Origin: an uncultured Nitrososphaerota archaeon
GTDB taxonomy: Archaea; Thermoproteota; Nitrososphaeria; Nitrososphaerales; Gagatemarchaeaceae
Assembly (NCBI GenBank): GCA_963718895.1
Contig: CAVRAG010000004.1
Location: forward strand, 325,456 to 389,455
Length of the DNA stretch: 64,000 bases
Direction: 5' to 3'
A program made the translations under genes and the position numbers. Numbering within the stretch: the first letter of the stretch is position 1; each line of letters opens with the position of its first letter. The notes under the pieces were generated by a model. It was not told the origin of the DNA, searched no databases, and was given only the letters and a program-made list of their open reading frames with translations. Positions 16,266 to 55,204 of the stretch are shown here, piece by piece.

Positions 16266-17042
16266 CTAAACCTTAGTCCTCAATTCAGCGCTGGTCGCAT
16301 TTCCCGCCGGATGATTCACGAGGCACAATGAGCAATCTCCACACAAACAGTCTGCCGGGCAACACCTATCGCTGCAAGGTTGCGCGGGGATGTTCTGAAA
16401 GTGCGTCGCCGCCTCCCTCACACATAGAAAGGTCGCGATCGTGAGGACAGACCAGTTGCTGACGAGGGGGATATAGTTCCAACCGCGCAGGTTCAAGTCC
16501 CACTGTATCAGATTACTGATAGAGCTCGTCATCTGCAGGTAGTTTGCAGCCAGAAGGATGACCGTGGAGAACACTATGGCCGGAAGGCCGAAGATCTTGA
16601 CGGCGTTTATTATTCCTGTTCTGAAAGACACGCAGACGATGGTCAGGCTCCAGACCGCGAAGGCTGCGGCCCCGGATTCATAGGAGGATGCAAAACTGTA
16701 GTACGTTGCGTCTACTATGGCAAACAGGATATAGACAAGGCCTCCGGAGAGCGTCAGAGTCATCACCAACCATCTGGGAAAGCGCGGAGCAATCGGCCTG
16801 CTGAGCCAAGACGGGAGAGACGGCTTGATGATCAGGAACAGGGCCACGACGGATGCGATTACCAGTCCCTCTGCGATCTCACTGAGGGAGTCCAGGCGAA
16901 AGGGAGACAGAAGGCAGGCCTCTTCGCATCCTCTCGAGACGAGCACAAACAGAGCAAGGGAGACAGTCATGAAGGCGAAGACGACCAGCATCCAGCGACC
17001 CCTGCTCATCATTTGATTCGTCCCATTCCCGCCATCTAACAA
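16266..17042 (-). CDS. Multi-pass membrane protein with Cys-rich C-terminal tail
   Basis: About 6 hydrophobic segments; tail CSDRCCPADCLCGDCSLC; start probably ATG near 17011. Confidence 0.6.
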   Translation of the reverse strand: MLDGGNGTNQMMSRGRWMLVVFAFMTVSLALFVLVSRGCEEACLLSPFRLDSLSEIAEGLVIASVVALFLIIKPSLPSWLSRPIAPRFPRWLVMTLTLSGGLVYILFAIVDATYYSFASSYESGAAAFAVWSLTIVCVSFRTGIINAVKIFGLPAIVFSTVILLAANYLQMTSSISNLIQWDLNLRGWNYIPLVSNWSVLTIATFLCVREAATHFQNIPAQPCSDRCCPADCLCGDCSLCLVNHPAGNATSAELRTKV

Positions 17043-17118
17043 GTTCGACTTGACCGTCCTAGTGAGGAATGCCCTGGTACTGAAAAGGGTTGCCGTCGGC
17101 TGAATCGAAAGGTTGGAT
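17034..17118 (-). repeat. attC-like imperfect hairpin
   Basis: Minus strand ATCCAAC-CTTTC-GATTCAGC...GAACTT-GTTAGAT; RYYYAAC and GTTRRRY ends are complementary, TTCGA/TCGAA inner stem. Confidence 0.5.
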
Positions 17119-17269
17119 GTCCGCGAGTCGGATGGATGGGAAGTAGGTGCCGCGCTGTGTATGATGAATCGTCCCCCTCGACATCTTGGGCATGTTCTAG
17201 TCCGGAACGCTCCCTCATCTAAAGTTATGTCAGAGCTACCCCGGCCGTCCTGGGGATTACATGGTCGGA

Positions 17270-18190
17270 TTAGTTCTGAGCTGGCGATTGACCATCATGA
17301 TGGGAGCGGGGTCGTGGCGGTGCGGTCGCGACCGACTCCGGCTCTTCAGCGACGACCAGCTTCCCTGCGAGCCATGGCTTCATCACGAGGTCCCACCGAG
17401 TAATCACCTTGCCTCCCCGGATCACAAGGCATTCGGCCCCGTGCTTCTGCAGCTTCAGGGCCGCCTCCCCAAGGTTCGTCCGCTGGCCGACCGCGACGGG
17501 TCCGGCGCTCCAGAGTTCGCCTATCGGCGTAACCAGCGGGTCGCGATGAGGCTCATAGACCAGCGAGTCGAGGCTCTCCGGGTTGAGGATGTAATCAATC
17601 ATGGACCTGTCGGAGACGTAGCACCCGTCACCTTCGATGAATATCCGTCTGTACTGGCGCTCGAACATGGTCTCAAGCGCATCGCGGACGGGCGTGTCGC
17701 CCGGCATGGAAAAGATCGGGCTCGCGACATCCTCGGCCGTCATGTCAGTCTTGAGCAATCCCGTGTCATAGAGCCTGAGGACGTCACCGAGCGTCACGAG
17801 GCTCGGCCTCCCGCGTGAACCGGACGCTCTCAAGCCTGCGCAACCGAGCTTCCTGGACCTGAAACAATCCAGCAGCTCCCCGAGCTCCTGGTCTGCTGTG
17901 AGGGAGTCCAACCGGTCCGAGGCCTTGACGCATGGTCCCTGGACAAAAGAGGCAAAGCGCTTGTGCCCCATCGTGACGAGCTTCTCCAGACTCGAGAACC
18001 CGAGGACGGCCCTGCATTCGTCGTTGTCAGAGGTGAGGGGGACCGCAGCCAAGTCCTGCATCCTGAGCAGGTACAGGACGGTGATGAGCGGAAAGTCCGG
18101 TTTTACTATGGCACGCTGCCTTTCGAGTACGAATGGGAGCGCCGAGCCTAGCCGCAATCCTTGTAACCCCACGTGTAGCATAACCCTCAC
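17270..18190 (-). CDS. CBS-domain protein
   Basis: Repeated CBS-like segments (LVTLGDVL, TPVRDALETM, KVITRWDLV). Confidence 0.75.
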   Translation of the reverse strand: MRVMLHVGLQGLRLGSALPFVLERQRAIVKPDFPLITVLYLLRMQDLAAVPLTSDNDECRAVLGFSSLEKLVTMGHKRFASFVQGPCVKASDRLDSLTADQELGELLDCFRSRKLGCAGLRASGSRGRPSLVTLGDVLRLYDTGLLKTDMTAEDVASPIFSMPGDTPVRDALETMFERQYRRIFIEGDGCYVSDRSMIDYILNPESLDSLVYEPHRDPLVTPIGELWSAGPVAVGQRTNLGEAALKLQKHGAECLVIRGGKVITRWDLVMKPWLAGKLVVAEEPESVATAPPRPRSHHDGQSPAQN

Positions 18191-18293
18191 ATCTTAACTA
18201 TTTGTCCGAATTTCGAGAGAGAATTGGTGTTTTTTGCCACTTTTCGAAATTCGGCGGCGGGAGACAGGTTAAAGGCCCCGGGCCGGGCCGCAC

Positions 18294-18548
18294 TTGATGC
18301 AGATGCCTGACGACAACGTCATCGTGAAGGTCTCGAAGGTCCTCGACAAGGGACTAGTCTCGATCCCGCTCGAGATAAGGGAGAAGCTCGACTTGCAGCC
18401 TGGTACCAAGATGATCGTTTTCGCCACGGAGGACGGGGTAGTGCTGAGAAAAGCGGAGCTCTTCTTCGAGAGGGAACCCCCGGCTGGGTTGCTGAGCAGG
18501 ATTCGCGGGATATTCTCAAAGGTCCCGATAAGGGACATAGAGGAGTGA
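18294..18548 (+). CDS. AbrB/MazE/SpoVT-family DNA-binding protein
   Basis: KVLDKGLVSIPLEIREKLDLQPGTKM. Confidence 0.85.
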   Translation: MMQMPDDNVIVKVSKVLDKGLVSIPLEIREKLDLQPGTKMIVFATEDGVVLRKAELFFEREPPAGLLSRIRGIFSKVPIRDIEE

Positions 18549-18635: not shown

Positions 18636-18653
18636 GGCTCACGAACCTGACCT

Positions 18654-19895: not shown

Positions 19896-21038
19896 CTATC
19901 CGACACTGTTCCAGATTTGCGTTCCTGGAGGCAGTGGTTGAGTGGCGCTGATGCTGAATTGGTCGCCTGCATAGGCGGTCGGATTCTGGATCTGCCCTTG
20001 GACATTCCAAGGAGATGCAGAGTATGACACCGCAGACGCGATGTAGTGCCACACGCCGCTGCTCATGTACTGCGCAGATTGGATGTTTATAGTGTTGAAC
20101 CTGAAAGGAGCTACAGCTGTCGTCTGTTGTTCGAGTAGCACATGCGGCTGGGTCGAGATGGACGCGATACTTGAGCCGAAGTCATAGGTTCCAAATTCTA
20201 TTCCGTTGAAGTAGAATCCCCATATGTCGGAGTTGGGAGCTATGGCCTCGGCCATGAAGGTGTTGTATGAAGGTTGCGAGACGGTGGTCGAAGGCCCGGA
20301 ACTGGAAGACATGGGGGCGTAGGGCAGAGTTGTCACGTTCCATACTTGGCCGAACGGTAGGATCGTGTCGTTTCCCGTCTGGAAGTACCCTACTTGGATG
20401 AAGAGATCGTCCGGGAGGTAGTCGTCGATGAAGACGGCAATCAGATTTGAGGACCTTTCGCCTACCGTGGTCTGGGGAACAGCTTCTATTGTCGCCCTTA
20501 TCCCGGAGTTGCCTGCCATATTGACGTCAGACGATGTGATACCCGTGTAGAAGTAATTGACCGCGTCCGCTATTGAGGTCGTGGTTGTTGTACCCGACGA
20601 TGAGGTGGAGCTCGAACAGAAAGAACCCTCCCCACACGTAGAACTTGACGTGGTGGTGGTCGATATGGTGGTGCTTGAAGTCGTCGACGCAGTTGTGGTC
20701 GATTTGCTTGATTCCGCTGAAGAACTCGAAGTTGTAGATGAGGTGATCGTGATGCTTGTTGTTGAAGGCGGCGGGCTAGTTATGGAGGCTGTGCTCGAGA
20801 TAGTCGTGCTGGATGTGGTAGTGCTTGGGGTGGTTGCGCTTGGCGTCGAGTATGTTGAGGACGATAGAGTCGACTCGGTGGTCGCCAGCTTGCTCACGCT
20901 CTGCTCCCCGAACCTCGTGTACGCCAGGACGACCGTGAGGGACGCTAAAGCTACCACCACCACAATAGCCACTGCCAGTATCTTGCGAGATGGTCCTCCG
21001 GTTGCTATTGCCGTCAAGCGAGCCAGCCTCGTAATCAT
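19896..21038 (-). CDS. Membrane-anchored Ser/Thr-rich protein with a possible glutamic-peptidase (G1/neprosin-like) C-terminal domain
   Basis: N-terminal TM, long S/T linker, then GIRATI...FIQVGY...WGFYFNG...VLLEQ. Confidence 0.6.
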   Translation of the reverse strand: MITRLARLTAIATGGPSRKILAVAIVVVVALASLTVVLAYTRFGEQSVSKLATTESTLSSSTYSTPSATTPSTTTSSTTISSTASITSPPPSTTSITITSSTTSSSSAESSKSTTTASTTSSTTISTTTTSSSTCGEGSFCSSSTSSSGTTTTTSIADAVNYFYTGITSSDVNMAGNSGIRATIEAVPQTTVGERSSNLIAVFIDDYLPDDLFIQVGYFQTGNDTILPFGQVWNVTTLPYAPMSSSSGPSTTVSQPSYNTFMAEAIAPNSDIWGFYFNGIEFGTYDFGSSIASISTQPHVLLEQQTTAVAPFRFNTINIQSAQYMSSGVWHYIASAVSYSASPWNVQGQIQNPTAYAGDQFSISATQPLPPGTQIWNSVG

Positions 21039-21053
21039 TTCGGGCCGGATTGC

Positions 21054-21073
21054 GATTAATAGTTATGTCCGAA
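21054..21073 (-). repeat. Conserved 20-bp motif TTCGGACATAACTATTAATC (exact)
   Basis: Identical to the copies at 45435, 48071 and 60484. Confidence 0.9.
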
Positions 21074-25469: not shown

Positions 25470-25952
25470 CTAGGTATCCCGGGTCGTTGCGTAGGTCTTG
25501 AAGGCCTCGTACGCCGTTATGACTACAGCCGCGGAGTTCACGATTAGCGCGAAGAAGTAGAGGGAGGTGACCGAGGCCGGCCGGAACACCGTCAGCAGGA
25601 TTGCCAGGGTGCTCAGGAAGAAAGCCGCGTACGCCGTCTGAAGCGGTATTATCGTCTTCCTTATCCTGATGACGTTCTCGAAGATGACCCTGTCGACCGC
25701 GTAGCCCCCCTCCCTTTCCTGGACGAGCCCGGCTCGGACGAGCTTCTTGATGTGGTACTCGGCCACCGAGGGCGAGCTCAGCGAAAGCGCCCTCTGGACG
25801 TCGCGGATGCCCACCGCAGTACCCGCTCTGTACATGTAGCGATAGACGCGGAGCGTGGTGCCGCTGACGTAGTCCTTGAAATCCTCACTCATGGCATCAC
25901 GCGTCCACACGGTATCGCCGCGTTGCGGACTTATCCTTATGGAACCGGGCAT
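25470..25952 (-). CDS. Membrane-anchored winged-helix regulator
   Basis: GTTLRVYRYM, GIRDVQRALSLSSPSVAEYHIKKL plus two C-terminal TMs; start likely MSEDF near 25892. Confidence 0.8.
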   Translation of the reverse strand: MPGSIRISPQRGDTVWTRDAMSEDFKDYVSGTTLRVYRYMYRAGTAVGIRDVQRALSLSSPSVAEYHIKKLVRAGLVQEREGGYAVDRVIFENVIRIRKTIIPLQTAYAAFFLSTLAILLTVFRPASVTSLYFFALIVNSAAVVITAYEAFKTYATTRDT

Positions 25953-25997
25953 CCTAAAACGTAGGACTATATCGATAGGGTCCGAGATACCCTCAGG

Positions 25998-26699
25998 ATG
26001 TCACAGCCGGGAAAGGTGGTTGCCGGGGCGGGGGTAGCGGTCATCGCAGCCGTCCTGCTCGGAGTGCTGGCGAGCGCCAGCTTCCCGTCGGGGGCGCCGT
26101 CCCTGACCTTCACCACCACGACCACACCCACCGTCGCCGTCACATTCACGGTCATCGCCACTTCGACGGTCACGGCCACCTACGGCGTCTCCACTTCCGC
26201 GTCGACGGTGAGCTCCTTGAGCACCACAACGACTTCGGTGGCGACGACGAACTCGGCCACAGTCAGTGCTACAACGTCTGCCACATCGACGAGCACTGGG
26301 ACAACTGAATCTTCGACCACGACGTCGCCGTGCGGATCGCCGGGGGTGTACTGCGGGAACATCCAGATCACTTCGGCGAACCTGACCGTCGGCGCAAGCG
26401 GCAGTTTCCTGCAGGTCACTTTGCTCGAGGTGGGCAACTCCTACATCGGCAGCGCGACCGTGTACGTCAACGGGACGGTCATCGGCGTCCCGCCCGCCTC
26501 CCAATACGAACCTCCTGGGAACATCATACTGAACGTCCAACCCGGAGAGCAGGTCGTCCTCGTGCTCACGATTCCGAGCAGCACGCTGTCGGTCCAGTCG
26601 GGAAGGACCTACTCCGTCCTGGTCTATGCCTGGCTTGGGCCACCTGGCCAGAGGGCGAGCTCCGGCCTTCCGGCGACTGTCAACGTCACCGCTGACTGA
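25998..26699 (+). CDS. Membrane-anchored Thr-rich exported protein
   Basis: N-terminal TM, T/S linker, beta-rich C-domain. Confidence 0.75.
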   Translation: MSQPGKVVAGAGVAVIAAVLLGVLASASFPSGAPSLTFTTTTTPTVAVTFTVIATSTVTATYGVSTSASTVSSLSTTTTSVATTNSATVSATTSATSTSTGTTESSTTTSPCGSPGVYCGNIQITSANLTVGASGSFLQVTLLEVGNSYIGSATVYVNGTVIGVPPASQYEPPGNIILNVQPGEQVVLVLTIPSSTLSVQSGRTYSVLVYAWLGPPGQRASSGLPATVNVTAD

Positions 26700-26841
26700 G
26701 GGCTCTTTCACCTTCACTTTTCAGACGGTCGGGGGTACCCAGCGTAGCCGTAGCGAACATTAGATAGCGCCAGTGGGAATCAAAGTAGAATTGCTGTGGA
26801 TGAGACGAGAATGGACTCGAACATTCGACTTCTTCTGGACT

Positions 26842-44638: not shown

Positions 44639-44698
44639 TGGCTGTGATAGCCTCTCGGCTCGCGAGCTTGTCCTGTTAGGCGAGGAGGCGCAAGGGAG

Positions 44699-45397
44699 TC
44701 ACTGCCAACAATAGGAGCCTTGTCCGTTCATCACGAATGTGGTAGTTACATTTGCCGAGGGAACATGAAGGGTCACGCAAGAAGTTCCAATCGGTGGAAC
44801 GGTTGCCGTGAAATGATAAGTCGACCCCTGATAGACAACGGTGAAGCTGAGCTGCCCGCCCGACTCTGCTTGATTCGGGAAGACGGGGGTCAGCCATCCC
44901 TCTTGTCCGACGCTGAAGCTGTCTATGTGAACGACCTGTGTTTCGGGAGGGTTTCCGACTATATCGCATCCGAGCGTATCGACTGCATTGACCAACTCCC
45001 CGCTAACCGACGCGTTTGTGGAATCGGATGCTATTCGAATCTGTAGTCCCCCGATTCCGGTAACAACGCAAGAAGTGAGATATGTGTCAGTCGCGTTGGT
45101 GAAGCTTGTTCCAGTAACATATCCAGTGTTACCTGCGGATGAAGTAGTAGGAGCAGAAGTAACAGTAGCTGTGATTGTAACAGTTGTCTTGAATGTGGTG
45201 GTCGTTGTTACGGTTGTGCCGTTAGGAGCAACGGAGAAAACTGTCATCGTAGATGTCTGTGTGTTCGTGATGGCGGTTGTCCTTGTGACGGTGGCGGTAG
45301 CCGCCGTCTCTAAGTAAAGAGTGCCTCCTACGATGAGCGCGGCGACCACTATGGCGATCGCCAGTCGGGAGAAGCTCCGGACCGGTGTAGCGCTCAT
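44699..45397 (-). CDS. Membrane-anchored Thr-rich protein (MS..P.RS leader family)
   Basis: MSATPVRSFSRLAIAIVVAALIV, T-rich linker, Cys-containing C-domain. Confidence 0.75.
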   Translation of the reverse strand: MSATPVRSFSRLAIAIVVAALIVGGTLYLETAATATVTRTTAITNTQTSTMTVFSVAPNGTTVTTTTTFKTTVTITATVTSAPTTSSAGNTGYVTGTSFTNATDTYLTSCVVTGIGGLQIRIASDSTNASVSGELVNAVDTLGCDIVGNPPETQVVHIDSFSVGQEGWLTPVFPNQAESGGQLSFTVVYQGSTYHFTATVPPIGTSCVTLHVPSANVTTTFVMNGQGSYCWQ

Positions 45398-45434
45398 CAG
45401 AGAAAGGCCTCAAAGAAGATTGCGCCTTGACTTC

Positions 45435-45454
45435 GATTAATAGTTATGTCCGAA
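45435..45454 (-). repeat. 20-bp motif copy (exact)
   Basis: TTCGGACATAACTATTAATC. Confidence 0.9.
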
Positions 45455-45519
45455 CTGCAACCTCTAGCGTCTGTCGGTCTTAGAAGCCTAAAAGTGACGG
45501 TGCCACGCCAAGGTTGATT
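45455..45519 (-). repeat. attC-like imperfect hairpin abutting the motif
   Basis: CAACCT..GCGT..GTC..TTAG / CTAA..GAC..ACGC..AGGTTG. Confidence 0.5.
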
Positions 45520-45546
45520 GCGCTCTCCCATATGGCAGTCGCGGTC

Positions 45547-46194
45547 TCATGCGGTTGCCGCGGAAGTCGAGGTGCAGGATATCGCCGGACCCAGGAGGAC
45601 GACCGTGACGTCATTCCCGTTGACGTTGATGACCCCAGAGGGGTTTCCGAAGTTCCACGCCACGGCCATGCTGTACTGGTATTGCCCGTTTGGAACGGAG
45701 AACGCGATCACCGAGGAGTTTGCGTAGGAGGGGCCGGCGGCTCCAGAGCCGGTCGAGACGGGAAAGGCGGCATTCGACGGCTCCACCACGGTCCAAGGTC
45801 CAAGCGTTACGGACCATGGGGCAGCATAGGACGTGGGCGTGCAATCCCCGCTCTGCTTGAAAATCACTTCGTAGAGGCGCGCGCCCGCCGGAAACGTCAG
45901 TGTCCCTGTGACGATCACGGTGGCATTTCCTAGAGTCCGTGTCGAGACGGACGTGATAGTGGTCGTTGTGGTCGCGGTGGATGCGATGGGAGTTCCGATG
46001 GGAGTTTCAGTGACTGTTGAGAGTATTGTGAACGCCGTGGTTGAGATCGACGTGGTGGTCTCTGGTATCGTCTTGGTGATCGTGACAGTGCCCCCAAAGG
46101 TAGACGTGGCGACGATTGCGGCGGCGACTACGACCGCTGCCACGACCATCGCCGCTGCGATTCGGGTGTAACTCCGTGGTGGTTGACCACTCAT
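45547..46194 (-). CDS. Membrane-anchored Thr-rich protein (same leader family)
   Basis: MSGQPPRSYTRIAAAMVVAAVVV; WSVTL...IAFSVPNGQYQY surface-protein beta-domain. Confidence 0.75.
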   Translation of the reverse strand: MSGQPPRSYTRIAAAMVVAAVVVAAAIVATSTFGGTVTITKTIPETTTSISTTAFTILSTVTETPIGTPIASTATTTTTITSVSTRTLGNATVIVTGTLTFPAGARLYEVIFKQSGDCTPTSYAAPWSVTLGPWTVVEPSNAAFPVSTGSGAAGPSYANSSVIAFSVPNGQYQYSMAVAWNFGNPSGVINVNGNDVTVVLLGPAISCTSTSAATA

Positions 46195-46209
46195 AGAAAT
46201 CCAACCTTA

Positions 46210-46237
46210 TGAAGCGTGATTAGTAGTTTTGTCCGAA
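46210..46237 (-). repeat. 28-bp site, inverted partner of 48071-48098
   Basis: TTCGGACAAAA CTACTA ATCACGCTTCA. Confidence 0.85.
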
Positions 46238-46383
46238 TGGTGTAGCCTCGTAGTAAATCCTCGCCGTACATCGGTTGGACATGCAGCTAAGTTTCGGCTT
46301 CGAAGGGCCCTCGCCGGCCGTAATACGTCTTCTTGGGCCTCCGCCAAGTCCCCGTCCCGAATACGCATGAGGCCTGAACAGGT

Positions 46384-46761
46384 CTATCTGGCGCTTTCCT
46401 TCCGCATCACCGCGGCCTGCCGCCGGTCGTAGGTCTTCAGCGCAGCGCCGACCTCCAGCGCCAGCGCTATGAACACGGCGTCGTAAATGGACAGCCCGTT
46501 CCTCGCGGCGAGCGCATAGGACCGCTCCATCAGGCCCGGGCTGGGACGGACCGCCCTAATCTTGTTCGTCTCGAGCAGCCCGTGGAATATCGAGAGATAC
46601 TTAGGCCCGTCTTTGAGGTCCTTCAGCAGGTGCTGGTGCTTCCAGACGGAGTTCGCCACCTCGTAGACGGCCAGGTCGAGGGTGATGATGTCCTCCTCCC
46701 TGAGCAGCTCCTGGTCCTTCAGGAGGCCCTCGACGATGAAGCTGGAGTCGGCGACCATCAA
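46384..46761 (-). CDS. vapC: VapC PIN-domain toxin
   Basis: VADSS, YEVANSVWK, SIYDAVFIALA, TYD. Confidence 0.9.
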   Translation of the reverse strand: MMVADSSFIVEGLLKDQELLREEDIITLDLAVYEVANSVWKHQHLLKDLKDGPKYLSIFHGLLETNKIRAVRPSPGLMERSYALAARNGLSIYDAVFIALALEVGAALKTYDRRQAAVMRKESAR

Positions 46762-46976
46762 CGCCCTCTGTCCTCCCCGATGAGCCTGGCGTCCTCGGCG
46801 GAGGTCGTCCTGACGCGGTCCTCGCCCTGGAGCTCCCGCAGCTTGACCAGGAGCCGCTCGCTCCGCTTCGAGTCGAGGTAGAGGCGGAGTGCGTCCCTGA
46901 TGGAGTTGGAGAGGGGGCCGTACTCGAGCAGGGCCCTCTTCTGCTCGTCGGAGATCCTCACGCTTATGGTCGGCAT
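46758..46976 (-). CDS. vapB: VapB-like antitoxin (RHH)
   Basis: TISVRI...LIGEDR; overlaps the vapC start. Confidence 0.8.
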   Translation of the reverse strand: MPTISVRISDEQKRALLEYGPLSNSIRDALRLYLDSKRSERLLVKLRELQGEDRVRTTSAEDARLIGEDRGR

Positions 46977-47053
46977 GTATGACGCTTTGTAGGACAGAGT
47001 GTAATATTTAGCGTTTGGGTTTGAGCAGTCTCCACTGGTAGCGGGCCATGCTG

Positions 47054-47151
47054 CCCCTCAGCACGTCGTCGACGTCAAGTTCTATCTCGTTGACCTATAC
47101 AGCAGCGAGAAGAACGAGTCGCCGAGCTCCGCCACGGTCCTCTCGCTCGGC
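47054..47151 (-). pseudogene. MazG-like 3' fragment
   Basis: SERTVAELGDSFFSLL... matches the 50645 gene; frameshifted. Confidence 0.7.
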
Positions 47152-47152
47152 T

Positions 47153-47575
47153 TTACGGCCCTGGGACTCTCTCCACCAAGCCGTCGAACTCGGCGTCGAA
47201 GCTCATGATCCTCTCGATTCCGTGGACCTGCATCAGCGCAAGAGAGGTGCAGTCGGTGAAGCTCATCGGCCGCTCGCGCATCTCCCGGAACTTGTCCCAG
47301 GCCGACTGGAATTCGCCACGGCCGACGGGCAAAAGCTCGATTCTCGGTGAATCTATCACGAGCCTGCCCGTATTGACCGCGAGGTCGTGCCTGTGGGTCC
47401 TCGCCAGAGCTGTCGTGATCGCTTCATCGACGATGAAGTCTGAGGTGCAGACCCGCCCGAACTCTCCCCGGAGCGCTCTCTCCATGAGCGGCACCGCCTT
47501 TGCATGCAGGTTGTCGGAGCGGTTTCGTGCCGCGACGAGGATTCCCGTGTCTATGAATATCGCCGTTCGCACCAC
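47153..47575 (-). CDS. vapC: VapC PIN-domain toxin
   Basis: IFIDTG, IVDEAIT, SFTDCTS, SFDAEF. Confidence 0.9.
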   Translation of the reverse strand: MVRTAIFIDTGILVAARNRSDNLHAKAVPLMERALRGEFGRVCTSDFIVDEAITTALARTHRHDLAVNTGRLVIDSPRIELLPVGRGEFQSAWDKFREMRERPMSFTDCTSLALMQVHGIERIMSFDAEFDGLVERVPGP

Positions 47576-47586
47576 ACCTCCGTGGT

Positions 47587-47859
47587 TCAGCCGTAGAGGA
47601 ACTCGTCGATTCGCTCTGATGCGTCGGAGACGCCCCAGTCATCGGGGCTCTGGAGCTGTTTCCACGCCGGGTCCTCCTCCAACGGAGGCAGGCGCTTGAG
47701 CCTGCTCACGACCTCTTCTCTGTGTTCCATCGAGTAGTCCAGCATGGTTCCCATAGCCTCTTGAAGTGATACTTTCAGCCCCTCGTTGATTATCAAGGAG
47801 GCGACGAACCTCTCGAGGTTCTTCTTCCGCTGCTCGTCGATCTTCACTGAAGCAGACAT
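47587..47859 (-). CDS. vapB: Putative antitoxin
   Basis: MSASVKID...DASERIDEFLYG directly upstream of vapC. Confidence 0.75.
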   Translation of the reverse strand: MSASVKIDEQRKKNLERFVASLIINEGLKVSLQEAMGTMLDYSMEHREEVVSRLKRLPPLEEDPAWKQLQSPDDWGVSDASERIDEFLYG

Positions 47860-48070
47860 GGCTGTTTTGACTACTTTTCTACTTTTATACTTTGCGACAA
47901 TGATTGTTGGTGGGGTCCTCGGGCGGCCGTCTGACCGATGGTCTTCAGGGGTGTTGATGCCCAATCATTCATACGTGGTTGTCGCGTCGTCAGATATTGC
48001 TCAGTGCCGTAATCTATGATGAGGGATCCTGCGCCTGAGTGAAGCACCCCGACAAATCACCCCAGAACCG

Positions 48071-48098
48071 TTCGGACATAACTATTAATCACGCTTCA
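48071..48098 (+). repeat. 28-bp site containing an exact 20-bp motif
   Basis: TTCGGACATAA CTATTA ATCACGCTTCA. Confidence 0.9.
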
Positions 48099-48124
48099 GA
48101 GACTTTGCACTCAGGCCGCATGCC

Positions 48125-48565
48125 TTGCAACTCGGGAGAACGCTTCTGCTCTCAGTCACCCTCGTCTTCGTAGCCCTCGGCCTCGGAATCTCCATCGGAT
48201 ACGGCATCTCTCCCGTAACGACCCGGACCACCACGCTTACGCGCCTCACCACCTTGGTCGAGACATCCCCGACTACCATAACTCAAACAGGGCCGACGAC
48301 GATAACAGTTGTTGCGCCACCCGGCGAACCCTACACGGTGTACACCGTAACAGAGCAAACCGCCCAGGTCCTAATCGTTGTGCCCGAGTGCGCCACGAGC
48401 TCCGGACAGGTCATCGCCACGACCACCACTGTAGAGGCGAGCACGACCGTGATTTTCATCACCCCGACAGGGATCGACTATTCCGGTGCGGTCTCCTTCA
48501 CCACCGTGACCAATAGCACGTTTGGCATCTCGCTTCGGACGCAGACCGAGAGCACCTCCTGCTGA
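48125..48565 (+). CDS. Membrane-anchored Thr-rich protein
   Basis: N-terminal TM then T-rich body. Confidence 0.7.
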   Translation: MQLGRTLLLSVTLVFVALGLGISIGYGISPVTTRTTTLTRLTTLVETSPTTITQTGPTTITVVAPPGEPYTVYTVTEQTAQVLIVVPECATSSGQVIATTTTVEASTTVIFITPTGIDYSGAVSFTTVTNSTFGISLRTQTESTSC

Positions 48566-48664
48566 CGAATGCCCACTGTACACCGGTTGGACATGCAGCT
48601 TAGCCTAGGAGGGTAGAATATGTTCGCTGGTCATCCGGACGGTCGCGACTCCCATGACAAGCCT

Positions 48665-49027
48665 TCATATCATCTCCACTCCCGGCAGGTTCCTGAAATG
48701 GTGGTCCCCCGTGACCACCGTCATCTTCCTCTGCAGGCCGGTCGCGTACACTATCGCGTCGACCGTGTGCAGCCCTCGTCTCTGTCTTTCATCTGCCGCT
48801 TGGAGTGCGATCTCCTGAGACAGGGGTACGATGAAGCTTCTCTCCACGATGAAATTCAGGCTCGGCGCAGGATCCCTTTGGTCCCTCAGATATCTCGCCT
48901 TCACCTCGGTCAGGCAGATGGAAGGGGTGTAGAGAGGCTCGCCGCCATCGACGTAAGGCTTCACCGCGGCACCCCTGTCCGAACCCTTCAGATACTCGAT
49001 CCAGGCAAAGGAATCAAGGACCTTCAT
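48665..49027 (-). CDS. vapC: VapC PIN-domain toxin
   Basis: VLDSFAWIEY, DAIVYAT, TGDHHF. Confidence 0.9.
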   Translation of the reverse strand: MKVLDSFAWIEYLKGSDRGAAVKPYVDGGEPLYTPSICLTEVKARYLRDQRDPAPSLNFIVERSFIVPLSQEIALQAADERQRRGLHTVDAIVYATGLQRKMTVVTGDHHFRNLPGVEMI

Positions 49028-49217
49028 GGGGTTCCTTCTCGTCTCTGAGATTGGTCACGGTCAGCCAGGGGTCTGCTCCGAACATGCTCTTCTTTGGGGT
49101 CGAGAATTGCTTCGTCAGAGCCTCGTTTATGGTCTTCGAGATCTTCCGCCTGCCGTACTTCTTGACAATCTGCTCGTAAATCTCATCTTTGAGGAGAATC
49201 GTGGTCTTTACTGGCAT
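49014..49217 (-). CDS. vapB: Putative antitoxin (RHH)
   Basis: MPVKTTILLKDEIY...SMFG; overlaps vapC. Confidence 0.75.
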   Translation of the reverse strand: MPVKTTILLKDEIYEQIVKKYGRRKISKTINEALTKQFSTPKKSMFGADPWLTVTNLRDEKEPHEGP

Positions 49218-49454
49218 CAAGTCACCGTAGATGTAATACATCGATGTCATATTTAAGCCCTGTTGAGTTTTTGGATTGACCCCCTGCATTGGGGATGCTA
49301 TCGCTCAGCCGACCTGCTCAGCCTGCTGCCCGAGCGGGTTGTAGGTGAGCCCCTCGGAAAACCGTCACCCTACGGAAGAACCATTGGTAGGTCAATCGAC
49401 TGCTACGAGCAGTTGATGGGCATGGTCGAAGGATGACGCGCAGCTGCTCTGGAC

Positions 49455-49922
49455 TCATTGTGTTGAATTGGTGGGGAAGAACTTTCTGTAAGGTAGGAGC
49501 AGGCCAGCGACCAGAATCGCTGCAATGAACATGGAACCGACATCCACGTACCTGAATGCAAGATAGTCATTAGACACGTCGAGCAGAAAGAGCACGGGCA
49601 CAACCCACGTCAGGTACCAGGCCCACGCTTCTCCCTTCCTGTAGGCCGTCGCCGATAGAACCGCCAAGAAGGCCCCGAGGCCTGCGCTGAAGATGGCAAA
49701 GATCCTGATGAGATAGTAGATGTAATCGGCAACGCCCGGGCTCGACGCGGCTAACTGGGAAAATGTGGAGCCGGTCAGGCTCTCGACGGCGCCTTCGGCT
49801 TCGGTGAGGATTCCAGGCGAAACGAGAGTGGCGGACATGGAGAGCAGGAAGAATGACCCCATTAGGAATGGAATCACCCAAGCATACTTCTCATACGCTT
49901 TCTCCTTTCGAACTACAGCCAT
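49455..49922 (-). CDS. Membrane protein
   Basis: 4 TMs; YRKGEAWAW, LLLPYRKFFP. Confidence 0.7.
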   Translation of the reverse strand: MAVVRKEKAYEKYAWVIPFLMGSFFLLSMSATLVSPGILTEAEGAVESLTGSTFSQLAASSPGVADYIYYLIRIFAIFSAGLGAFLAVLSATAYRKGEAWAWYLTWVVPVLFLLDVSNDYLAFRYVDVGSMFIAAILVAGLLLPYRKFFPTNSTQ

Positions 49923-50034
49923 GAAACATGCCCCAAGTCAACGACATGAGCGAGCGCTCTTCGCCTGTCTTCACGGACGGGAATGCCGTCGATGTACGCC
50001 CTTCCTTCCGTGCCTCTCAAGCGAGTGAAGGTCT

Positions 50035-50644: not shown

Positions 50645-50950
50645 TCAAGGGAGAGTCGGTCCCCTTTGATCTCGTTTCGCATACCTAACCAGGGTGCTTC
50701 TCAGCACATCTTCGACGTCGACGTGCATCTCGTTCGCCATGCACAGCTGCGAGAAGAGCGAGTCGCCGAGCTCCGCCACCGCCCTCTCGCCCGGCCTTGC
50801 GGCCCCGCGCTTCCCGTAGCCCGAGTCCCGGAGTATCTCCTGGGCGAGCTCGCCGGTCTCGGCGCAGAGTTCGAGGGCCCGGTACGGAAGGGAGAGCCTC
50901 GTGCCCGTCTTCTCGGTGTGCTCGGCCGCCAGCTGCTGGAGGAGGTTCAT
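50645..50950 (-). CDS. MazG-like nucleotide pyrophosphohydrolase
   Basis: LCAETGELAQEIL...ELGDSLF (ExGE...ELGD pattern). Confidence 0.8.
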   Translation of the reverse strand: MNLLQQLAAEHTEKTGTRLSLPYRALELCAETGELAQEILRDSGYGKRGAARPGERAVAELGDSLFSQLCMANEMHVDVEDVLRSTLVRYAKRDQRGPTLP

Positions 50951-51743: not shown

Positions 51744-53252
51744 TTGGCATCCGTCTCTCTTGCGCTGATCCTTCTCGTCGTGGCCGTCCCGACCGCGCCT
51801 CGGGCGGAAGCGAAAGTTTCGGTCTTCTCGATGCAATCGAGCGCAGTCTGCGAGAACCCGAGTTTGCTCTTCCAGCAAAAAGCATATTCCTTCGGGTGCC
51901 CGCTGCGGACGCACGTCGGTGACGCGATAATCTTCCTTGTCGGGTGCATAGGCGGCCCGACAGAATGCACGATTTCGGTCCAAGACACTCAAAACGATAC
52001 GTACTCCAGCTCTGGGTCGATCGAGACCGTGTGCGGCAGCTTTGCATGCACTGAATTCGAGTTCTCGACGACCGCACACGCCACCGGTAACGACACAATC
52101 ACGGCCACGGCGGACGAAAAGGCCCCAATCGGGGGCGACGCCTATGACATCGCGGGGGTAAACGCTTCCAAGCAGATGAGTGCCTTCGGCTCATCCCCCA
52201 TGTCCAATTTCCCCTCCACAATCCCTATCACTCCTTTTCCGAACGGCTTCGTCGTGGCTGGAGTCGCCGCGAACAACGCTTTGCAGTTCGGGCCCGGGAA
52301 TGGGTACACCCTTGTCGCGAACCAGCCATGCCAGCAGTGCGGACAGCCCGGTGGCTGGCAGGCTAGCGAGTTCGCGTTCTGGGGAGCAAGCGGCAACACC
52401 AACGCACCCTTCAACTATCCCCTGGAGAACGACGGGTGGGGGGAGATCGTGACGAGCTACGCGCCCAACGTAGCGAATGTGTCGATTTCGTGTTCTCCAT
52501 CGGCAGGGACGGTCTCCATCGCGAGCACCTGTACGGCGAGCGTCAAGGGAGATGTCCCGACCGGTACCGTGGCCTGGATGACGAACGGGACTGGCGGATT
52601 CTCCGCGTCTTCTTGCTCCCTTTCATCAGGCTCCTGTTCTGTCGGCTATACCCCCTCCGTTCCGTCGAAGAACCTGATAACTGCGACATATGGTGGAGAC
52701 ACCGACAACCCAGTCGCCTCGTCCAGCGTGGTGCTGCAAGCGGGAAAGCACTCTTCCACAACTGCCGTCGCGTGTTCCCCGGCGTCGGCCGCCGTCGGCT
52801 CTCCGTCTACGTGCACTGCGACGGTCTCCGGGGCGAACCCGACTGGGACGATCACGTGGGCCAGCAGCGGAGTGGCCAACTTTTCGCCCTCCGGGACGTG
52901 CACTCTCGCGTCGGGGACCTGCGCTGTAAACTACATCCCATCTTCAACAGCTTCACCGATAACCCTGAACGCATTGTACTCTGGTGACTCTAACAACACC
53001 GTGAGCACGGGCGCGTTTTCGCTGTCCGTCACGCTGGCGACGGCCTCGAATGGCATCTCCTCCCCAACGAGCACGACAGCAGAGTCCTCGAGCACCCAGA
53101 ACTCGTCGGCGTCCTCTTCTGCAAGCGCATCGAGCAGTTCCCTCACGTTATTGTCGAGTTATCTCCTCATAGTTCCGACGGCCGCTGCCGTACTCCTTCT
53201 GGCCCTGGTGGGATCTTCTAGGCGGAGGCGCGTCCCATCGGGACTCACCTAG
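51744..53252 (+). CDS. Cell-surface protein with two Ig-like repeats and C-terminal TM anchor
   Basis: Repeated CSP...TCTA.V.G..PTGT..W...ITA.Y.GD; S-rich linker, TM, RRRR. Confidence 0.8.
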   Translation: MASVSLALILLVVAVPTAPRAEAKVSVFSMQSSAVCENPSLLFQQKAYSFGCPLRTHVGDAIIFLVGCIGGPTECTISVQDTQNDTYSSSGSIETVCGSFACTEFEFSTTAHATGNDTITATADEKAPIGGDAYDIAGVNASKQMSAFGSSPMSNFPSTIPITPFPNGFVVAGVAANNALQFGPGNGYTLVANQPCQQCGQPGGWQASEFAFWGASGNTNAPFNYPLENDGWGEIVTSYAPNVANVSISCSPSAGTVSIASTCTASVKGDVPTGTVAWMTNGTGGFSASSCSLSSGSCSVGYTPSVPSKNLITATYGGDTDNPVASSSVVLQAGKHSSTTAVACSPASAAVGSPSTCTATVSGANPTGTITWASSGVANFSPSGTCTLASGTCAVNYIPSSTASPITLNALYSGDSNNTVSTGAFSLSVTLATASNGISSPTSTTAESSSTQNSSASSSASASSSSLTLLSSYLLIVPTAAAVLLLALVGSSRRRRVPSGLT

Positions 53253-53273
53253 GGCGCTGGATGGAGGGTCTCG

Positions 53274-53366
53274 TTACGACATGACGCCGGTGCTGTCGTG
53301 GTAGACCTCGTAGTCCTCGGGCTTGAGCTTGCGGACGGGTTCCTTCTCTTTCTTCGTCTCGGCCAT
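53274..53366 (-). CDS. Candidate 30-aa mini-protein
   Basis: MAETKKEKEPVRKLKPEDYEVYHDSTGVMS with a TTATA box upstream; YHDSTGV stretch duplicated at 55321. Confidence 0.4.
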   Translation of the reverse strand: MAETKKEKEPVRKLKPEDYEVYHDSTGVMS

Positions 53367-53537
53367 GGTGGAAGAGGAGCGCGGGGGAGGCTATAACGGG
53401 CGGGGAGGGCGGAGGTGATTAGGACTGGGGAGGGGGATGAAAGTGAGCGGTCAAATCGAAGAAGAGAAATCTTCGCGCCTTCGCGCTTCGGGCGACAAAC
53501 TTCCAGTCTTTTCCTGTCCTCTCTTCACTAGCGCAAT

Positions 53538-55034
53538 CTACACAAGTAGCAAGAACGCCCATACGGGAATAACAACAGCGTTACTCCCCTCTCTCAATTC
53601 ATTTCTGCTCAACAGTATTCCGGCACGCTTTGAACCGGTCGCCTTGGCGAAATCAATGATTCCGAACTTATCATCTCTCGTGATGGATCTCTGGTACTTC
53701 AGTTCAATTGCCATGTAAGTCAAAGTCGAGTCCTTAAGAACGAAGTCAACTTCACGGCTTTTGTTGCTCCGCCAGTAGAACAGCGATGTCTGGTAATCGA
53801 ACAGCTGCTTCTGTTTGCTGAAAGCGTATGAGAGCCGTACCAAGTGATCCGCAACAACCGATTCCACCAAACAAGCCACATTCCGCTCTTCCCTCATGTA
53901 GTCAACGCACATCTGGAATGGGGCAAGTCCTTTGCACCATGCTCGTAGCGAATGGAAGAAGAATGGATCCTCAAAGAATAGCTTCTTCTCCTTCTCGTAG
54001 GCAGGACTTCCCCTATTGGAATCCAACCGGTACAGGTATAGCAATGCGAAAGTGTCGGTAATGTAGTCAACGTACTCGGCTACGGTGGCATGACTCGCAA
54101 TGTCTGTGCCGTTTCGCATTGTGTTCCATCCGACAGAAGTCCCTTGGGTGTCGAGGATCCGACCTACAACCTGTCTGACATAGGTTTCGCGCTTGCCCCA
54201 TCTCTGCAGATCACCTAGGACCGAGTCAACATAGGTCTTGTAGATTCCCTCGCCAATCTCATTGTTCACTTTATACTCGTTGACCACCCGGGGAATTCCA
54301 CCGGTCATGAGATAGTCCGAAAACAGCTGCTGCAGTTCCTTAGAGTAGAGTACGATTTCCTTCACTATCTCCTTGACCTCTCCCTTGAGAAGCGAGCCGA
54401 AGATTCCTTTTCTTGCTTCAGCAGACAGGAGAACAGGCCCCATTATGTCACTAGCCAATTGAGGGTTCACTGATTCGACGTACTCGGCGAATTTCATGGG
54501 TAACATGATCTTGTCAAGTGTTTGGCTAGAAGTTCCTCTTCTCCCTGGAAGACGTTCTGCGTTTCTCTTCACATCGATAGAATGAGAACCAGTCAACACC
54601 ATCGTTACATTGGCTAGCTTCCCAACATCCGCTAGGTGCTTAACACCGTTCTGCCAATCTTTGACTGATGAGACCTCATCCAAGAAGACATATGCTCTTT
54701 TCCCGGCGATGCGTACCGAGTCACAATACGTGGACACTATTTCGGCAAGAACCTTCGGGCTGTCCACCAGATTGCAAGTGTAGTAGAAGACGTTTTTGGG
54801 GTCAGTAGTCTTGAGTCTCTCGGCTATCATCGTCTTCACCAAAGTTGTCTTCCCTACCTGCCGGGGACCTCTCAAAGTGTATACCGCGTCCTTATCCCAA
54901 TCGAAGAAATGCTTCATTCTGGGCTCCCATTTGATCTTGCTGCGCCTCAAATTGGCGATGTCCTTATCCGACTGAATCGCTGTCTTGTTCCTCCACCACT
55001 TGTTTTGGTCTACCAAATCAATCGGGAAAGACAT
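53538..55034 (-). CDS. AAA+ ATPase with C-terminal DUF4143/restriction-endonuclease-like domain
   Basis: GPRQVGKTT, FLDEV, LTGS, TGGIP, EVDFV...IELKY; visibly AT-richer than flanks. Confidence 0.88.
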   Translation of the reverse strand: MSFPIDLVDQNKWWRNKTAIQSDKDIANLRRSKIKWEPRMKHFFDWDKDAVYTLRGPRQVGKTTLVKTMIAERLKTTDPKNVFYYTCNLVDSPKVLAEIVSTYCDSVRIAGKRAYVFLDEVSSVKDWQNGVKHLADVGKLANVTMVLTGSHSIDVKRNAERLPGRRGTSSQTLDKIMLPMKFAEYVESVNPQLASDIMGPVLLSAEARKGIFGSLLKGEVKEIVKEIVLYSKELQQLFSDYLMTGGIPRVVNEYKVNNEIGEGIYKTYVDSVLGDLQRWGKRETYVRQVVGRILDTQGTSVGWNTMRNGTDIASHATVAEYVDYITDTFALLYLYRLDSNRGSPAYEKEKKLFFEDPFFFHSLRAWCKGLAPFQMCVDYMREERNVACLVESVVADHLVRLSYAFSKQKQLFDYQTSLFYWRSNKSREVDFVLKDSTLTYMAIELKYQRSITRDDKFGIIDFAKATGSKRAGILLSRNELREGSNAVVIPVWAFLLLV

Positions 55035-55124
55035 GTTGTAAGAGCATTTACAAGATACTTATAAATGACATGTAACAGCATCTTTAGTGGGCTAAATGTC
55101 CCAATTATCTGGTTAGCCAGTCGT

Positions 55125-55204
55125 CACCAACTGCCCACGAAGCCTTTCGTCCAGAGTACGTTCTGATCACTATGAGGTATGTCTGGGCTTTACGCGAGTT
55201 GATG
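55125..55204. repeat. attC-like imperfect hairpin
   Basis: CAACT..AAGC..CCAGA-GTAC / GTAT-TCTGG..GCTT..AGTTG. Confidence 0.45.

Follow-up and report, generated by a model that had tools for sequence, protein, structure and literature searches.

Gene cassettes in a soil archaeon, a non-ammonia-oxidising thaumarchaeon of the Gagatemarchaeaceae group, are joined by a repeat derived from the end of the 23S rRNA gene. Each cassette ends in this repeat, termed E2, which is the junction between neighbouring cassettes. The window analysed here is a stretch of 64,000 nt from a MAG of this organism (3.13 Mb; 80.5% complete, 5.4% contamination), in which ORFs were called with a crude longest-ORF caller. 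Its part from 17 to 64 kb is a variable region carrying cassette-type genes and marked by two conserved elements, E2 and a second motif, M1. In our joint reading, to which we give a probability of about 0.6, the hairpins of the window are ordinary, M1 would be a promoter module, and E2 would be a cassette junction that originates from the 23S end and is served by a recombinase acting in trans.

E2 is the junction between gene cassettes behind the 23S rRNA gene

E2 is a direct repeat of the final bases of the 23S rRNA gene and the first ~25-40 nt of its 3' trailer, with the core GGCGG(ag)AGGCGCAATGAACCC. The Rfam LSU model stops at C8:1568000, where the sequence is E2, and the core begins 11 nt past the 23S end. 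The 23S trailer pairs with the 23S 5' leader, and the trailer part of E2 is the 3' strand of this rRNA processing stem. In 48 of the 83 genomic copies detected with an E2 profile, the repeat takes in 15 nt or more of the 23S end. The extent of the repeat differs between copies on both sides and reaches ~45 nt of 23S and ~100 nt of trailer in M1-type cassettes. The core is near-identical across four genera of the family. E2 exhibited no excess folding on either strand and did not match any of the 21 tRNAs found by aragorn.

The majority of the copies (65 of 83), every one on the minus strand, form a 115-kb array at C8:1452.7-1568.0 kb, on another contig than the window. The array begins precisely at the 3' end of 23S, and its copies follow each other at a median spacing of 938 bp. 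Within 60 kb of the array 75 ORFs were examined, among them 11 PIN, 3 MazE and 1 Fic as well as GNAT, methyltransferase and PNPOx domains; PIN/MazE pairs were present, and 38 of the 75 ORFs had no Pfam match. Cassettes with opposite-strand ORFs keep E2 in the orientation of the array. Some cassettes have a promoter-like module of their own, M1, and in some C8 copies E2 is followed by GGCTAGAGGTTCCG and then by M1.

Five duplicates within the array (79-97% identity) had their 3' ends -9 to +14 nt from the E2 junction. Only two alignments were used to locate the break point to the exact base; in both, homology broke directly after GAACC (...ATGAACC) on both sides. One cassette was 94.8% identical between G000 and G007, compared to 78-81% for the housekeeping genes beside the rRNA operon, and the cassettes neighbouring it have only E2 in common. 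The array layout downstream of 23S was found in all five relatives with a located 23S gene. In G007 the E2 array likewise lies at the 23S end. The E2 core is found 11-12 nt past the 23S end, or overlapping it, in G009, G018 and G021, and the first matched copy in G060 lies 1.66 kb downstream. In G009 the 23S gene ends at 1867442 and E2 copies run from 1867454 to at least 1897844.

Hairpins, E2 relics and the M1 motif in the window

A first-pass annotation had described ten imperfect hairpins of the window as attC-like. Their sequences and end motifs are indeed present (Table 1). Each site was folded on both strands with DNA parameters and compared with 300 dinucleotide shuffles. Three of the ten reached z < -2 on at least one strand, and the other seven folded at chance level (z between -0.07 and -1.8). 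Both canonical boxes as written occur at a single site. Pairs of RYYYAAC...GTTRRRY spaced 50-150 nt apart were found at three loci of the window (17034-17118, 40796-40880 and 46199-46280), and the 59 loci in the 3.13-Mb genome correspond to 1.2 expected per 64 kb (Poisson estimate for at least three, ~0.12). These pairs are 23.7 and 5.4 kb apart, so that no two of them fall within 4 kb, whereas the criterion given in PMC9668308 is two attC within 4 kb. When 70-nt folds were slid across all 1892 intergenic regions, the median minimum free energy was -12.2 kcal/mol in the 31 regions between 17 and 55.3 kb and -12.1 kcal/mol elsewhere (Mann-Whitney p = 0.71). GC-corrected folding residuals in 17-55.3 kb were no lower than elsewhere either (p = 0.92). 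An integron integrase was not found (best TIGR02249 match 33.8 bits, cut-off 265), and an Rfam search gave no match. The claimed hairpins are ordinary intergenic sequence and not attC sites.

Since the hairpins and the AAC/GTT ends occur at background level, the outcome that the annotation itself had set against its proposal, the attC reading fails as written, and the suggested degenerate CALIN falls with it. The reported strand asymmetry is slight: the + strand was stabler in 59% of the overlapping folding windows between minus-strand genes versus 49% elsewhere. The TTCGGAC motif (TTCGGACA) is real, with 13 copies in the window versus 2.41 expected, a number reached in 0 of 100 shuffles. The broader hunch was right: mobile gene cassettes make up the variable region, their junction is non-canonical, and TTCGGAC is part of the picture. 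The junction is the conserved repeat E2 and not a single-strand hairpin site.

The window holds one clear E2 copy and four weak relics, those within 17-55 kb being weak evidence (E 0.034, 0.44 and 1.6). With one intact E2 and a few such relics, it has the look of an outpost of the E2 cassette system that has become dispersed or has decayed.

Table 1. Coordinates of hairpins, M1 and E2 copies and cassette-type genes in the window (z, folding against shuffles; E, nhmmer with the E2 profile unless Pfam is named)
Feature	Position	Strand	Score	Remarks
Hairpin	17034-17118		z -0.67/-0.81	both boxes (ATCCAAC...GTTAGAT, minus strand); no E2, no M1
Hairpin	32055-32123		z -0.82/-0.07
Hairpin	32155-32222		z -2.8 (+), -2.6 (-)	overlaps stop of gene 32217-32801; single local hairpin outside any repeat family
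Hairpin	32835-32894		z -1.80/-0.41
Hairpin	32924-32999		z -1.64/-0.71	in 3' flank of gene 33002-33553; conserved in 0/5 orthologous loci
Hairpin	44632-44681		z -1.12/-1.13
Hairpin	45455-45519	+	z -2.06
Hairpin	46231-46280		z -0.47/-0.40
Hairpin	49378-49428	+	z -3.3	beats shuffles on + strand; outside the block kept with the neighbouring gene in relatives (window 49468-49960 only)
Hairpin	55125-55204		z -0.16/-0.68
M1	21053-21073	-		TTCGGACATAACTATTAATCG; upstream of gene 19896-21038 (380 aa, N-terminal anchor and Ser/Thr-rich stretch)
M1	44618-44638	-		downstream ORF uncertain (44369-44614 doubtful); first bases are one arm of hairpin 44632-44681 (z -1.1)
M1	45434-45454	-		upstream of gene 44699-45397; homology to G002 stops exactly at its 5' edge (block 44755-45454, 74% identical)
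M1	46217-46237	-		upstream of gene 45547-46194; first bases are one arm of hairpin 46231-46280 (z -0.4)
M1	48070-48091	+		upstream of gene 48125-48565 (146 aa, signal anchor and Thr-rich stretch)
M1 variant	55354-55374	+		…CTACTAATAA; upstream of gene 55470-55988
M1	60483-60504	+		upstream of gene 60539-61252 (protein begins MSSQP...)
E2 relic, weak	28980-29009	+	E 0.034	GCGGAGGCACGATGAACCC
E2 relic, weak, degenerate	45489-45523	-	E 0.44, weak alone	GCGCAATCAACC...; begins 24 nt past stop of gene 45547-46194, runs into M1 45434-45454; overlaps hairpin 45455-45519, abuts TTCGGAC motif; by eye matches C8 copies with the order E2, GGCTAGAGGTTCCG, M1
E2 relic, possible	53213-53231	+	E 1.6, alone not significant	GGCGGAGGCGC; at 3' end of gene 51744-53252, a gene-end position that fits the pattern
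E2 copy	59847-59893	+	E 2e-09, 32.4 bits	~50 nt past stop of ORF 59268-59798
E2 relic, possible	61258-61270	+	E 1.4, alone not significant	AGGCGCGATGAAC; 6 nt past stop of gene 60539-61252
Gene	33002-33553	-		flanked by E2 on either side in relatives G021 and G003; no E2 in its 3' flank in the window
PIN toxin (46384-46761) and upstream small ORF	46384-46976	-	Pfam PIN E 2.5e-10	631-bp block 85-92% conserved in three relatives, at unrelated places
Small ORF and PIN toxin	58308-58935	+	Pfam PIN	matches G009:C3:1888311-1888961, within the stretch occupied by the G009 E2 array

M1 (GTTCGGACAWAACTATTAATCA) occurs in 32 copies in the genome, 7 of them in the window; the reversed-pattern control gave 0 copies in the genome. 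Near-perfect conservation extends over 19-22 nt in more than 100 copies, which is unusual for a promoter. Of the other genomes of the genus, 15 of 22 contain the motif, compared with 0 of 18 from other genera, and a search of 185,579 species genomes returned 79 loci, all in Nitrososphaerota MAGs. M1 lies ~50-57 nt ahead of the start codons of genes for membrane-anchored, Thr/Ser-rich proteins and always points toward the gene. Among 105 instances, which are drawn from related genomes and are not independent, 66 have their first long ORF beginning at +49 to +60 from M1, and 91 of the downstream ORFs encode an N-terminal hydrophobic segment, versus 560 of 3097 ORFs genome-wide. A 144-nt module consisting of M1, leader and signal anchor (60483-60626) recurs with 75-83% identity at many loci of this genome and of relatives. 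The position before start codons and the class of downstream genes suggest that M1 is an archaeal promoter module of the BRE/TATA type, one that moves together with genes for membrane-anchored surface proteins rich in Thr and Ser. Like archaeal BRE/TATA promoters, M1 has an AT-rich, TATA-like heptamer after a purine-rich stretch, keeps a constant spacing to the start codon downstream of it and points toward the gene. Unlike them, it is almost invariant over 22 nt and confined to one genus and one class of secreted or anchored proteins. Its heptamer TATTAAT also differs from the general TATA-like word before genes in this genome, TTAAATA; the AT-rich peak upstream of start codons lies genome-wide at -37 to -27.

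Two other readings of these elements were weighed. M1 could be a recombination or inversion site that shuffles surface-protein genes, in line with its near-invariance, with inverted neighbours such as 46237(-) and 48071(+), and with homology blocks in relatives that stop exactly at its 5' edge. The latter is expected anyway, because no functional part of a gene unit lies further 5' than its promoter. The fixed distance to the start codon, the gene-facing orientation, the single class of downstream proteins and a TATTAAT at a plausible distance make such a site distinctly improbable. That the hairpins are degenerate attC sites of a CALIN, or variant single-strand-folding sites used by an integron-type integrase, is barely credible. 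Such sites would agree with the boxes and the two-step stem on the + strand at 17034-17118, with the three sites that beat their shuffles, and with integrons reported in archaea, mostly as CALINs (Ghaly et al. 2022, PMC9668308). Against them stand the seven sites at chance, intergenic folding equal to the rest of the genome, box pairs at background without two candidates within 4 kb, and no IntI found. Moreover, the hairpins beside genes 33002-33553, 44699-45397 and 49455-49922 are not kept with those genes in relatives, although the attC of a cassette should be.

A possible mechanism and comparison with known systems

Integrative elements stack at tRNA genes by serial insertion. For E2, small circular cassettes would most likely bear the rRNA-end site in reconstituted form, and a recombinase supplied in trans would insert them successively into the rRNA-end site on double-stranded DNA. 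The outcome would be an integron-like array without attC hairpins or IntI. A recombinase was not found in or beside the arrays of G000 and G007, and G060 (96% complete, 18 E2 copies) had neither a Phage_integrase nor a Resolvase match. Circular cassettes, empty sites and alternative joints were not observed.

As E2 copies share up to ~90 nt or more, homologous recombination could do the same job. E2 might then be a mere homology patch, with cassettes exchanged by general homologous recombination between 50-170-nt rRNA-end repeats and no dedicated recombinase. The recombinase searches, including that of G060 for tyrosine and serine recombinases, are consistent with this, as are the length of the longest repeats and their variable extent on both sides. 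The common end point after GAACC in the two alignments, together with the 3' ends of the five duplicates, argues for a defined joint and renders the patch rather unlikely. Neutral patches would also be expected to drift, in contrast to the near-identical core in four genera, although gene conversion could keep patches alike as well. Very improbable is an action of E2 in RNA, in termination or processing of read-through from the rRNA promoter, with copies spread by duplication rather than as a recombination joint. In its favour, the 23S processing stem has E2 as its 3' strand, all array copies are oriented as the rRNA operon, and several are followed by a small hairpin and then a T-rich run. 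However, the partner strand in the 5' leader is present only once, and the mature 23S sequence in 48 of 83 copies is needless for a processing signal. The unchanged orientation of E2 in cassettes with opposite-strand ORFs, the break of cassette homology at E2 and its lack of excess folding likewise speak against an action in RNA.

Read as a row of cassettes joined by E2, the array resembles integron cassette arrays (attC/IntI; sedentary chromosomal, CALIN, archaeal) in that cassettes of one or two genes follow each other in a long, co-oriented series, with a median unit of ~0.9 kb and a repeat that closes each cassette. In both, frequent contents are toxin-antitoxin pairs, acetyl- and methyltransferases and unknowns, and cassettes occur in duplicate and in more than one species. 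In contrast to attC, E2 is conserved in sequence, shows no excess folding, lacks the R/L box architecture and originates from the 23S 3' end; there is neither IntI nor an integrase at the array head, and some cassettes carry M1. Islands also arise when elements integrate site-specifically, time after time, at the 3' end of tRNA or tmRNA genes, as in the tycheposons of Prochlorococcus. The E2 array is similar to these islands in that its direct repeats are copies of a structural RNA gene's 3' end, start at the true gene and continue downstream in one orientation, with units that differ between relatives. It departs from tycheposon-type islands in its anchor, the 23S end and processing-stem trailer instead of a tRNA, and in its tiny integrase-free units, up to 65 in a row, with no adjoining integrase. 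In this soil archaeon and in its relatives, small gene cassettes are lined up behind the 23S rRNA gene, with a copy of the 23S end as the joint.

Hairpins and box sequences in the window

Ten attC-like hairpins between 17034 and 55204 had been proposed by the first-pass annotation as a degenerate CALIN, that is a cluster of integron cassette sites (attC) lacking the integrase, or as a variant single-strand recombination site. The ten sequences are indeed present. Both strands of each site were folded with DNA parameters and compared with 300 dinucleotide shuffles. Only three of the ten sites passed the cut-off of z < -2 (Table), and the other seven folded at chance level (z -0.07 to -1.8). RYYYAAC and GTTRRRY pairs spaced 50-150 nt apart occur at three loci in the window versus 1.2 expected per 64 kb (59 in the genome). 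As written, one site in ten (17034-17118) carries both canonical boxes (RYYYAAC, R'', and GTTRRRY, R'). It is also the only one whose plus strand forms two stems, of 7 and 5 bp, separated by a 3/2-nt internal loop; this fold is at chance level. As a further control, 70-nt folds were calculated across all 1892 intergenic regions of the genome. The median minimum was -12.2 kcal/mol in the 31 regions from 17 to 55.3 kb versus -12.1 kcal/mol elsewhere (p 0.71), and after GC correction there was still no difference between this interval and the rest of the genome. The strand preference that had been ascribed to the hairpins survives as a small effect (59% versus 49% of overlapping windows). Since folds, boxes and intergenic control all lie at background, the hairpins fail by the annotation's own standard and are not real as a class. 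Hairpins with AAC/GTT ends, when picked by eye, occur at background frequency in DNA of 59% GC. In two of the proposed hairpins (44632-44681 and 46231-46280), one arm is simply the first bases of M1, a promoter-like motif described below.

Integron membership was addressed separately. By definition, a CALIN needs no IntI, the integron integrase. A profile search of the genome for IntI gave a best TIGR02249 match of 33.8 bits versus a cut-off of 265, in a MAG of 3.13 Mb and 11 contigs that is 80.5% complete, which leaves absence unproven. Rfam returned no match in the window at gathering thresholds. The CALIN criterion, as quoted in PMC9668308, asks for two or more attC sites separated by less than 4 kb, whereas the distances between the three box-pair loci are 23.7 and 5.4 kb.

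The window corresponds to G000:C4:325456-389455. Its first 16 kb hold core genes (for example PolD DP2, a topoisomerase, SHMT and F420 ligase), and from about 17 kb onwards many short ORFs without Pfam match are found together with regulators and PIN toxins. The four Phage_integrase matches of the genome are all outside the window. DNA contigs of four runs over positions 43000-50000 were 150-350-nt pieces at a depth of 2-5 from which the joints are absent, and are uninformative on cassette movement. Several repeats were observed in this region. Positions 31466-31610 and 58871-59015 (145 nt, same strand) are 96% identical, both at gene 3' ends. A repeat of about 120 nt (80-86% identity; 47035-47161, 50689-50805, 61396-61523 and 39776-39840), which also occurs in relatives, lies at plus-strand ORF starts and probably marks a paralogous N-terminus. 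A 359-nt block (61764-62122) is 95% identical in two other species (G001 and G010), far more conserved than its surroundings, and is repeated elsewhere in the genome at 82-83% identity.

The M1 motif

The TTCGGAC motif pointed out by the first-pass annotation was borne out: TTCGGACA is found 13 times in the window versus 2.4 expected. Seven of these copies belong to the 22-nt motif M1, GTTCGGACAWAACTATTAATCA. The genome carries 32 M1 copies clustered on contigs C4, C8, C10 and C7. Within the genus, M1 was detected in 15 of 22 further genomes, and among 18 genomes from other genera in none; the reversed pattern, used as a control, gave no match. Across 185,579 species genomes, 79 loci were obtained, all in Nitrososphaerota MAGs, Candidatus Gagatemarchaeum among them.

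An ORF follows M1 in 105 of 108 instances, counted across related genomes and hence not independent, and starts at +49 to +60 in 66 of the 105. At the start of 91 of these 105 ORFs (560 of 3097 ORFs genome-wide) there is a hydrophobic anchor, in most cases with a Thr/Ser-rich stretch behind it. Genes in general have an AT-rich peak at -37 to -27, with TTAAATA as the commonest upstream word, and the position of M1 relative to start codons is consistent with a promoter. Based on this position, the anchored Thr/Ser-rich ORFs downstream and the location of the AT-rich peak, M1 may be read as a BRE/TATA-type promoter module for surface proteins. The homology of relatives to window genes stops exactly at the M1 5' edge, and a 144-nt unit comprising M1, leader and signal anchor (60483-60626) recurs at many loci. 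Three M1 copies (G000:C8:1342579 (+) in the genome of the window, and in relatives the loci L023 and L066) precede a conserved, ORF-free leader some 150 nt long, beyond which a 482-aa protein with a strongly hydrophobic N-terminus of about 60 residues is encoded. The leader might be of a regulated type or correspond to a small RNA.

E2, a copy of the 23S rRNA 3' end in cassette arrays

About 80 further upstream bases are common to some M1 copies, and their core GGCGGAGGCGCAATGAACC defines the direct repeat E2. A profile search yielded 83 E2 matches in the genome, 65 of which are grouped within C8:1452.7-1568.0 kb, without exception in minus orientation and with a median spacing of 938 bp (range 285 bp to 18.8 kb). 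The segments between them carry small ORFs, one or a few apiece, that are predominantly in minus orientation. A 60-kb portion of the array has 75 ORFs that reach 90 aa or more; 11 encode PIN, three MazE and one Fic proteins, further domains being DUF4258, GNAT, two methyltransferases and PNPOx, and 38 are without Pfam match. In the 18.8-kb gap (G000:C8:1540551-1559324, locus L136) the genes are large; among their products are a TIG-domain protein of 1587 aa, a member of the Double-GTPase family and several without Pfam match. The gap may be a defence or surface-protein insertion. The E2 core, allowing up to two mismatches, was present in 12 of 14 other family genomes, six of the 12 having at least three copies, and in none of 106 genomes from 19 other families of the order. 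Arrays are present in roughly 20 genomes.

The ORF-poor conserved stretch adjoining the array is the rRNA operon, with 16S and 23S in minus orientation. C8:1568000 is where the Rfam LSU model ends, and the flanking bases on either side are E2. Here about 45 nt of the mature 23S 3' end pass into the trailer ATGCCCCGGCGGAGGCGCAATGAACC.... Of the 83 copies, 48 retain 15 nt or more of mature 23S sequence. Trailer and 23S 5' leader pair in two helices around an internal loop, in what is, judged from the predicted pairing, the layout of an archaeal processing stem. In five genomes (G000, G007, G009, G018 and G021) the array begins at the 23S 3' end and continues downstream in one orientation; in G009, G018 and G021 the E2 core lies 11-12 nt past the 23S end or overlaps it. 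In G060, which belongs to another genus, the first matched copy is found 1.66 kb downstream of 23S. Two E2 arrays of G060 (C4:2715-18095 (+) and 25599-32131 (-)) converge on an 8-kb centre encoding an HNH protein, a Schlafen-type helicase, a MazG-like protein and a Rad51/KaiC-like ATPase.

In G000 the 23S gene spans 4002 nt (G000:C8:1568000-1572001; L124:1-4002) versus 2987 model positions, indicating about 1 kb of insertions, and in G007 (L135:5780-6155; L126:4288-4836) the gene contains a group I intron (Rfam RF00028) as well as a LAGLIDADG ORF.

Two other identities of E2 were considered and rejected. As a hairpin, E2 is no more stable than its shuffles (z +0.24 to +1.33 for three copies; mean z +0.10 and +0.15 for 55 copies). 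As a mimic of a tRNA end, it has at most 8-nt words in common with 21 tRNAs predicted by aragorn, which probably missed some. E2 also matched no Rfam family in 40 kb of array at E up to 1.

Within the window, E2 is represented by one clear copy and four weak relics (Table), three of which follow gene ends. In G021 and G003, the gene at 33002-33553 has E2 copies on both sides; its flank in the window has no E2, and the adjoining hairpin is not conserved at five orthologous loci. The PIN module at 58308-58935 matches a stretch inside an E2-bearing array of G009.

Table. Window hairpins passing the folding cut-off, and E2 matches in the window
Feature	Position	Strand	Detail
Claimed hairpin	32155-32222	both	z -2.8/-2.6
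Claimed hairpin	49378-49428	+	z -3.3
Claimed hairpin	45455-45519	+	z -2.06
E2, clear copy	59847-59893	+	profile search; only clear copy in the window
E2, weak relic	28980-29009
E2, weak relic	45489-45523	-	E 0.44; sole overlap with a proposed hairpin (45455-45519)
E2, weak relic	53213-53231
E2, weak relic	61258-61270

Cassette movement and its possible mechanism

Five duplicates within the array (79-97% identity) have their 3' ends -9 to +14 nt from the E2 junction. Two base-level alignments revealed unrelated flanks and homology from just after ...ATGAACC(C) of the upstream E2 to just after GAACC of the cassette's own E2. As homology runs from the end of the upstream E2 to the end of the own E2, E2 travels at the cassette 3' end. 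A cassette shared by G000 and G007 has 94.8% identity, versus 78-81% for housekeeping genes beside the rRNA operon, and the neighbours of this cassette have only the 45-55-nt E2 in common. The same E2-bounded unit is therefore found in differing contexts, as expected of a mobile unit. In the 23S-anchored arrays, movable cassettes are thus delimited by E2, a copy of the rRNA end. The cassette idea of the first-pass annotation holds, but not its attC basis: it rests on a different element, E2.

The enzyme was sought in and around the arrays. No tyrosine or serine recombinase (Phage_integrase, Resolvase) is encoded in or beside the main array of G000 and G007, and G060, in which arrays are present, has no match to either family at all. 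A serine recombinase search in five genomes gave a single match, in G007, far from the array. Pfam searches of array flanks, of the 18.8-kb gap and of the centre of the convergent G060 arrays detected no recombinase. Tyrosine recombinases do occur at secondary sites: two lie at the inner ends of two diverging secondary E2 arrays in G021 (contig C3), and a divergent pair is located 1.4 kb from an E2+M1 junction at G000:C8:1189-1193 kb. The E2-adjoining tyrosine recombinases of G000, G021 and G009, only 16-36% mutually identical, give no single clear array-linked family. Candidates for the enzyme are this divergent pair (G000:C8:1190.9-1193.7 kb) with its G021 counterparts, and a tyrosine recombinase family of 462-487 aa that G000 has in common with the four other searched genomes of the genus. 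Elsewhere on C8 (G000:C8:1339140-1340211), a 462-aa tyrosine recombinase frame (domain match 1339140-1339640) lies beside, and maybe overlaps, tRNA-Leu (1340125-1340211), and resembles the type of integrated element in which the attachment site is part of the integrase gene.

In the favoured picture of cassette movement, circular cassettes would insert into the E2 site by the action of a trans-acting site-specific recombinase on duplex DNA, a mechanism to which we assign a probability of about 0.5-0.6. Its main rival is homologous recombination between the repeats, for which the E2 copies would provide the shared sequence; we consider this distinctly less probable. A wider proposal, which we rate at roughly even odds, is that the Gagatemarchaeaceae possess a gene-capture platform of their own, a functional counterpart of the integron. 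The 23S 3' end and its processing-stem trailer would serve as attachment site. Mini-cassettes lacking an integrase, many of them equipped with a promoter, would be stacked by the dozen directly behind the rRNA operon and exchanged between species, and the enzyme would be either a recombinase that has escaped recognition or one taken over from a mobile element.

The E2 arrays work like an integron cassette array, but differ from one in that neither attC sites nor IntI were identified. Closest in logic are the islands at tRNA gene ends. As in RNA-end islands, the direct repeats copy the 3' end of an RNA gene, and the array starts at the true gene and continues in one orientation downstream. Unlike in such islands, no integrase is found in or beside the arrays of G000 and G007, or anywhere in G060. 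From tRNA-end islands the E2 arrays are further set apart by their anchoring at 23S, by very small units devoid of an integrase and by how many of these follow one another. The main text of the Gagatemarchaeaceae genome paper (PMC10640624) does not mention integron, cassette, repeat, toxin, mobile or promoter. The portion of the thaumarchaeal mobile-element survey PMC6563490 considered here describes tandem integrations and no arrays of the E2 kind. No rRNA-end cassette array was found in the literature searched. Searches for archaeal integrons, as in Ghaly et al. 2022 (PMC9668308), rely on attC models and IntI, and would presumably miss an array jointed by an unfolded rRNA-end copy.

With M1, a candidate promoter or regulon marker is at hand for the surface glycoproteins of these archaea. 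The arrays supply a defined site, about 60-90 nt long, and narrow the candidate recombinases to a few. Their hosts are abundant, uncultured thaumarchaea of acid soil and peat, and if the arrays are an active capture system, they would give Archaea a second and independent way of exchanging genes as cassettes.
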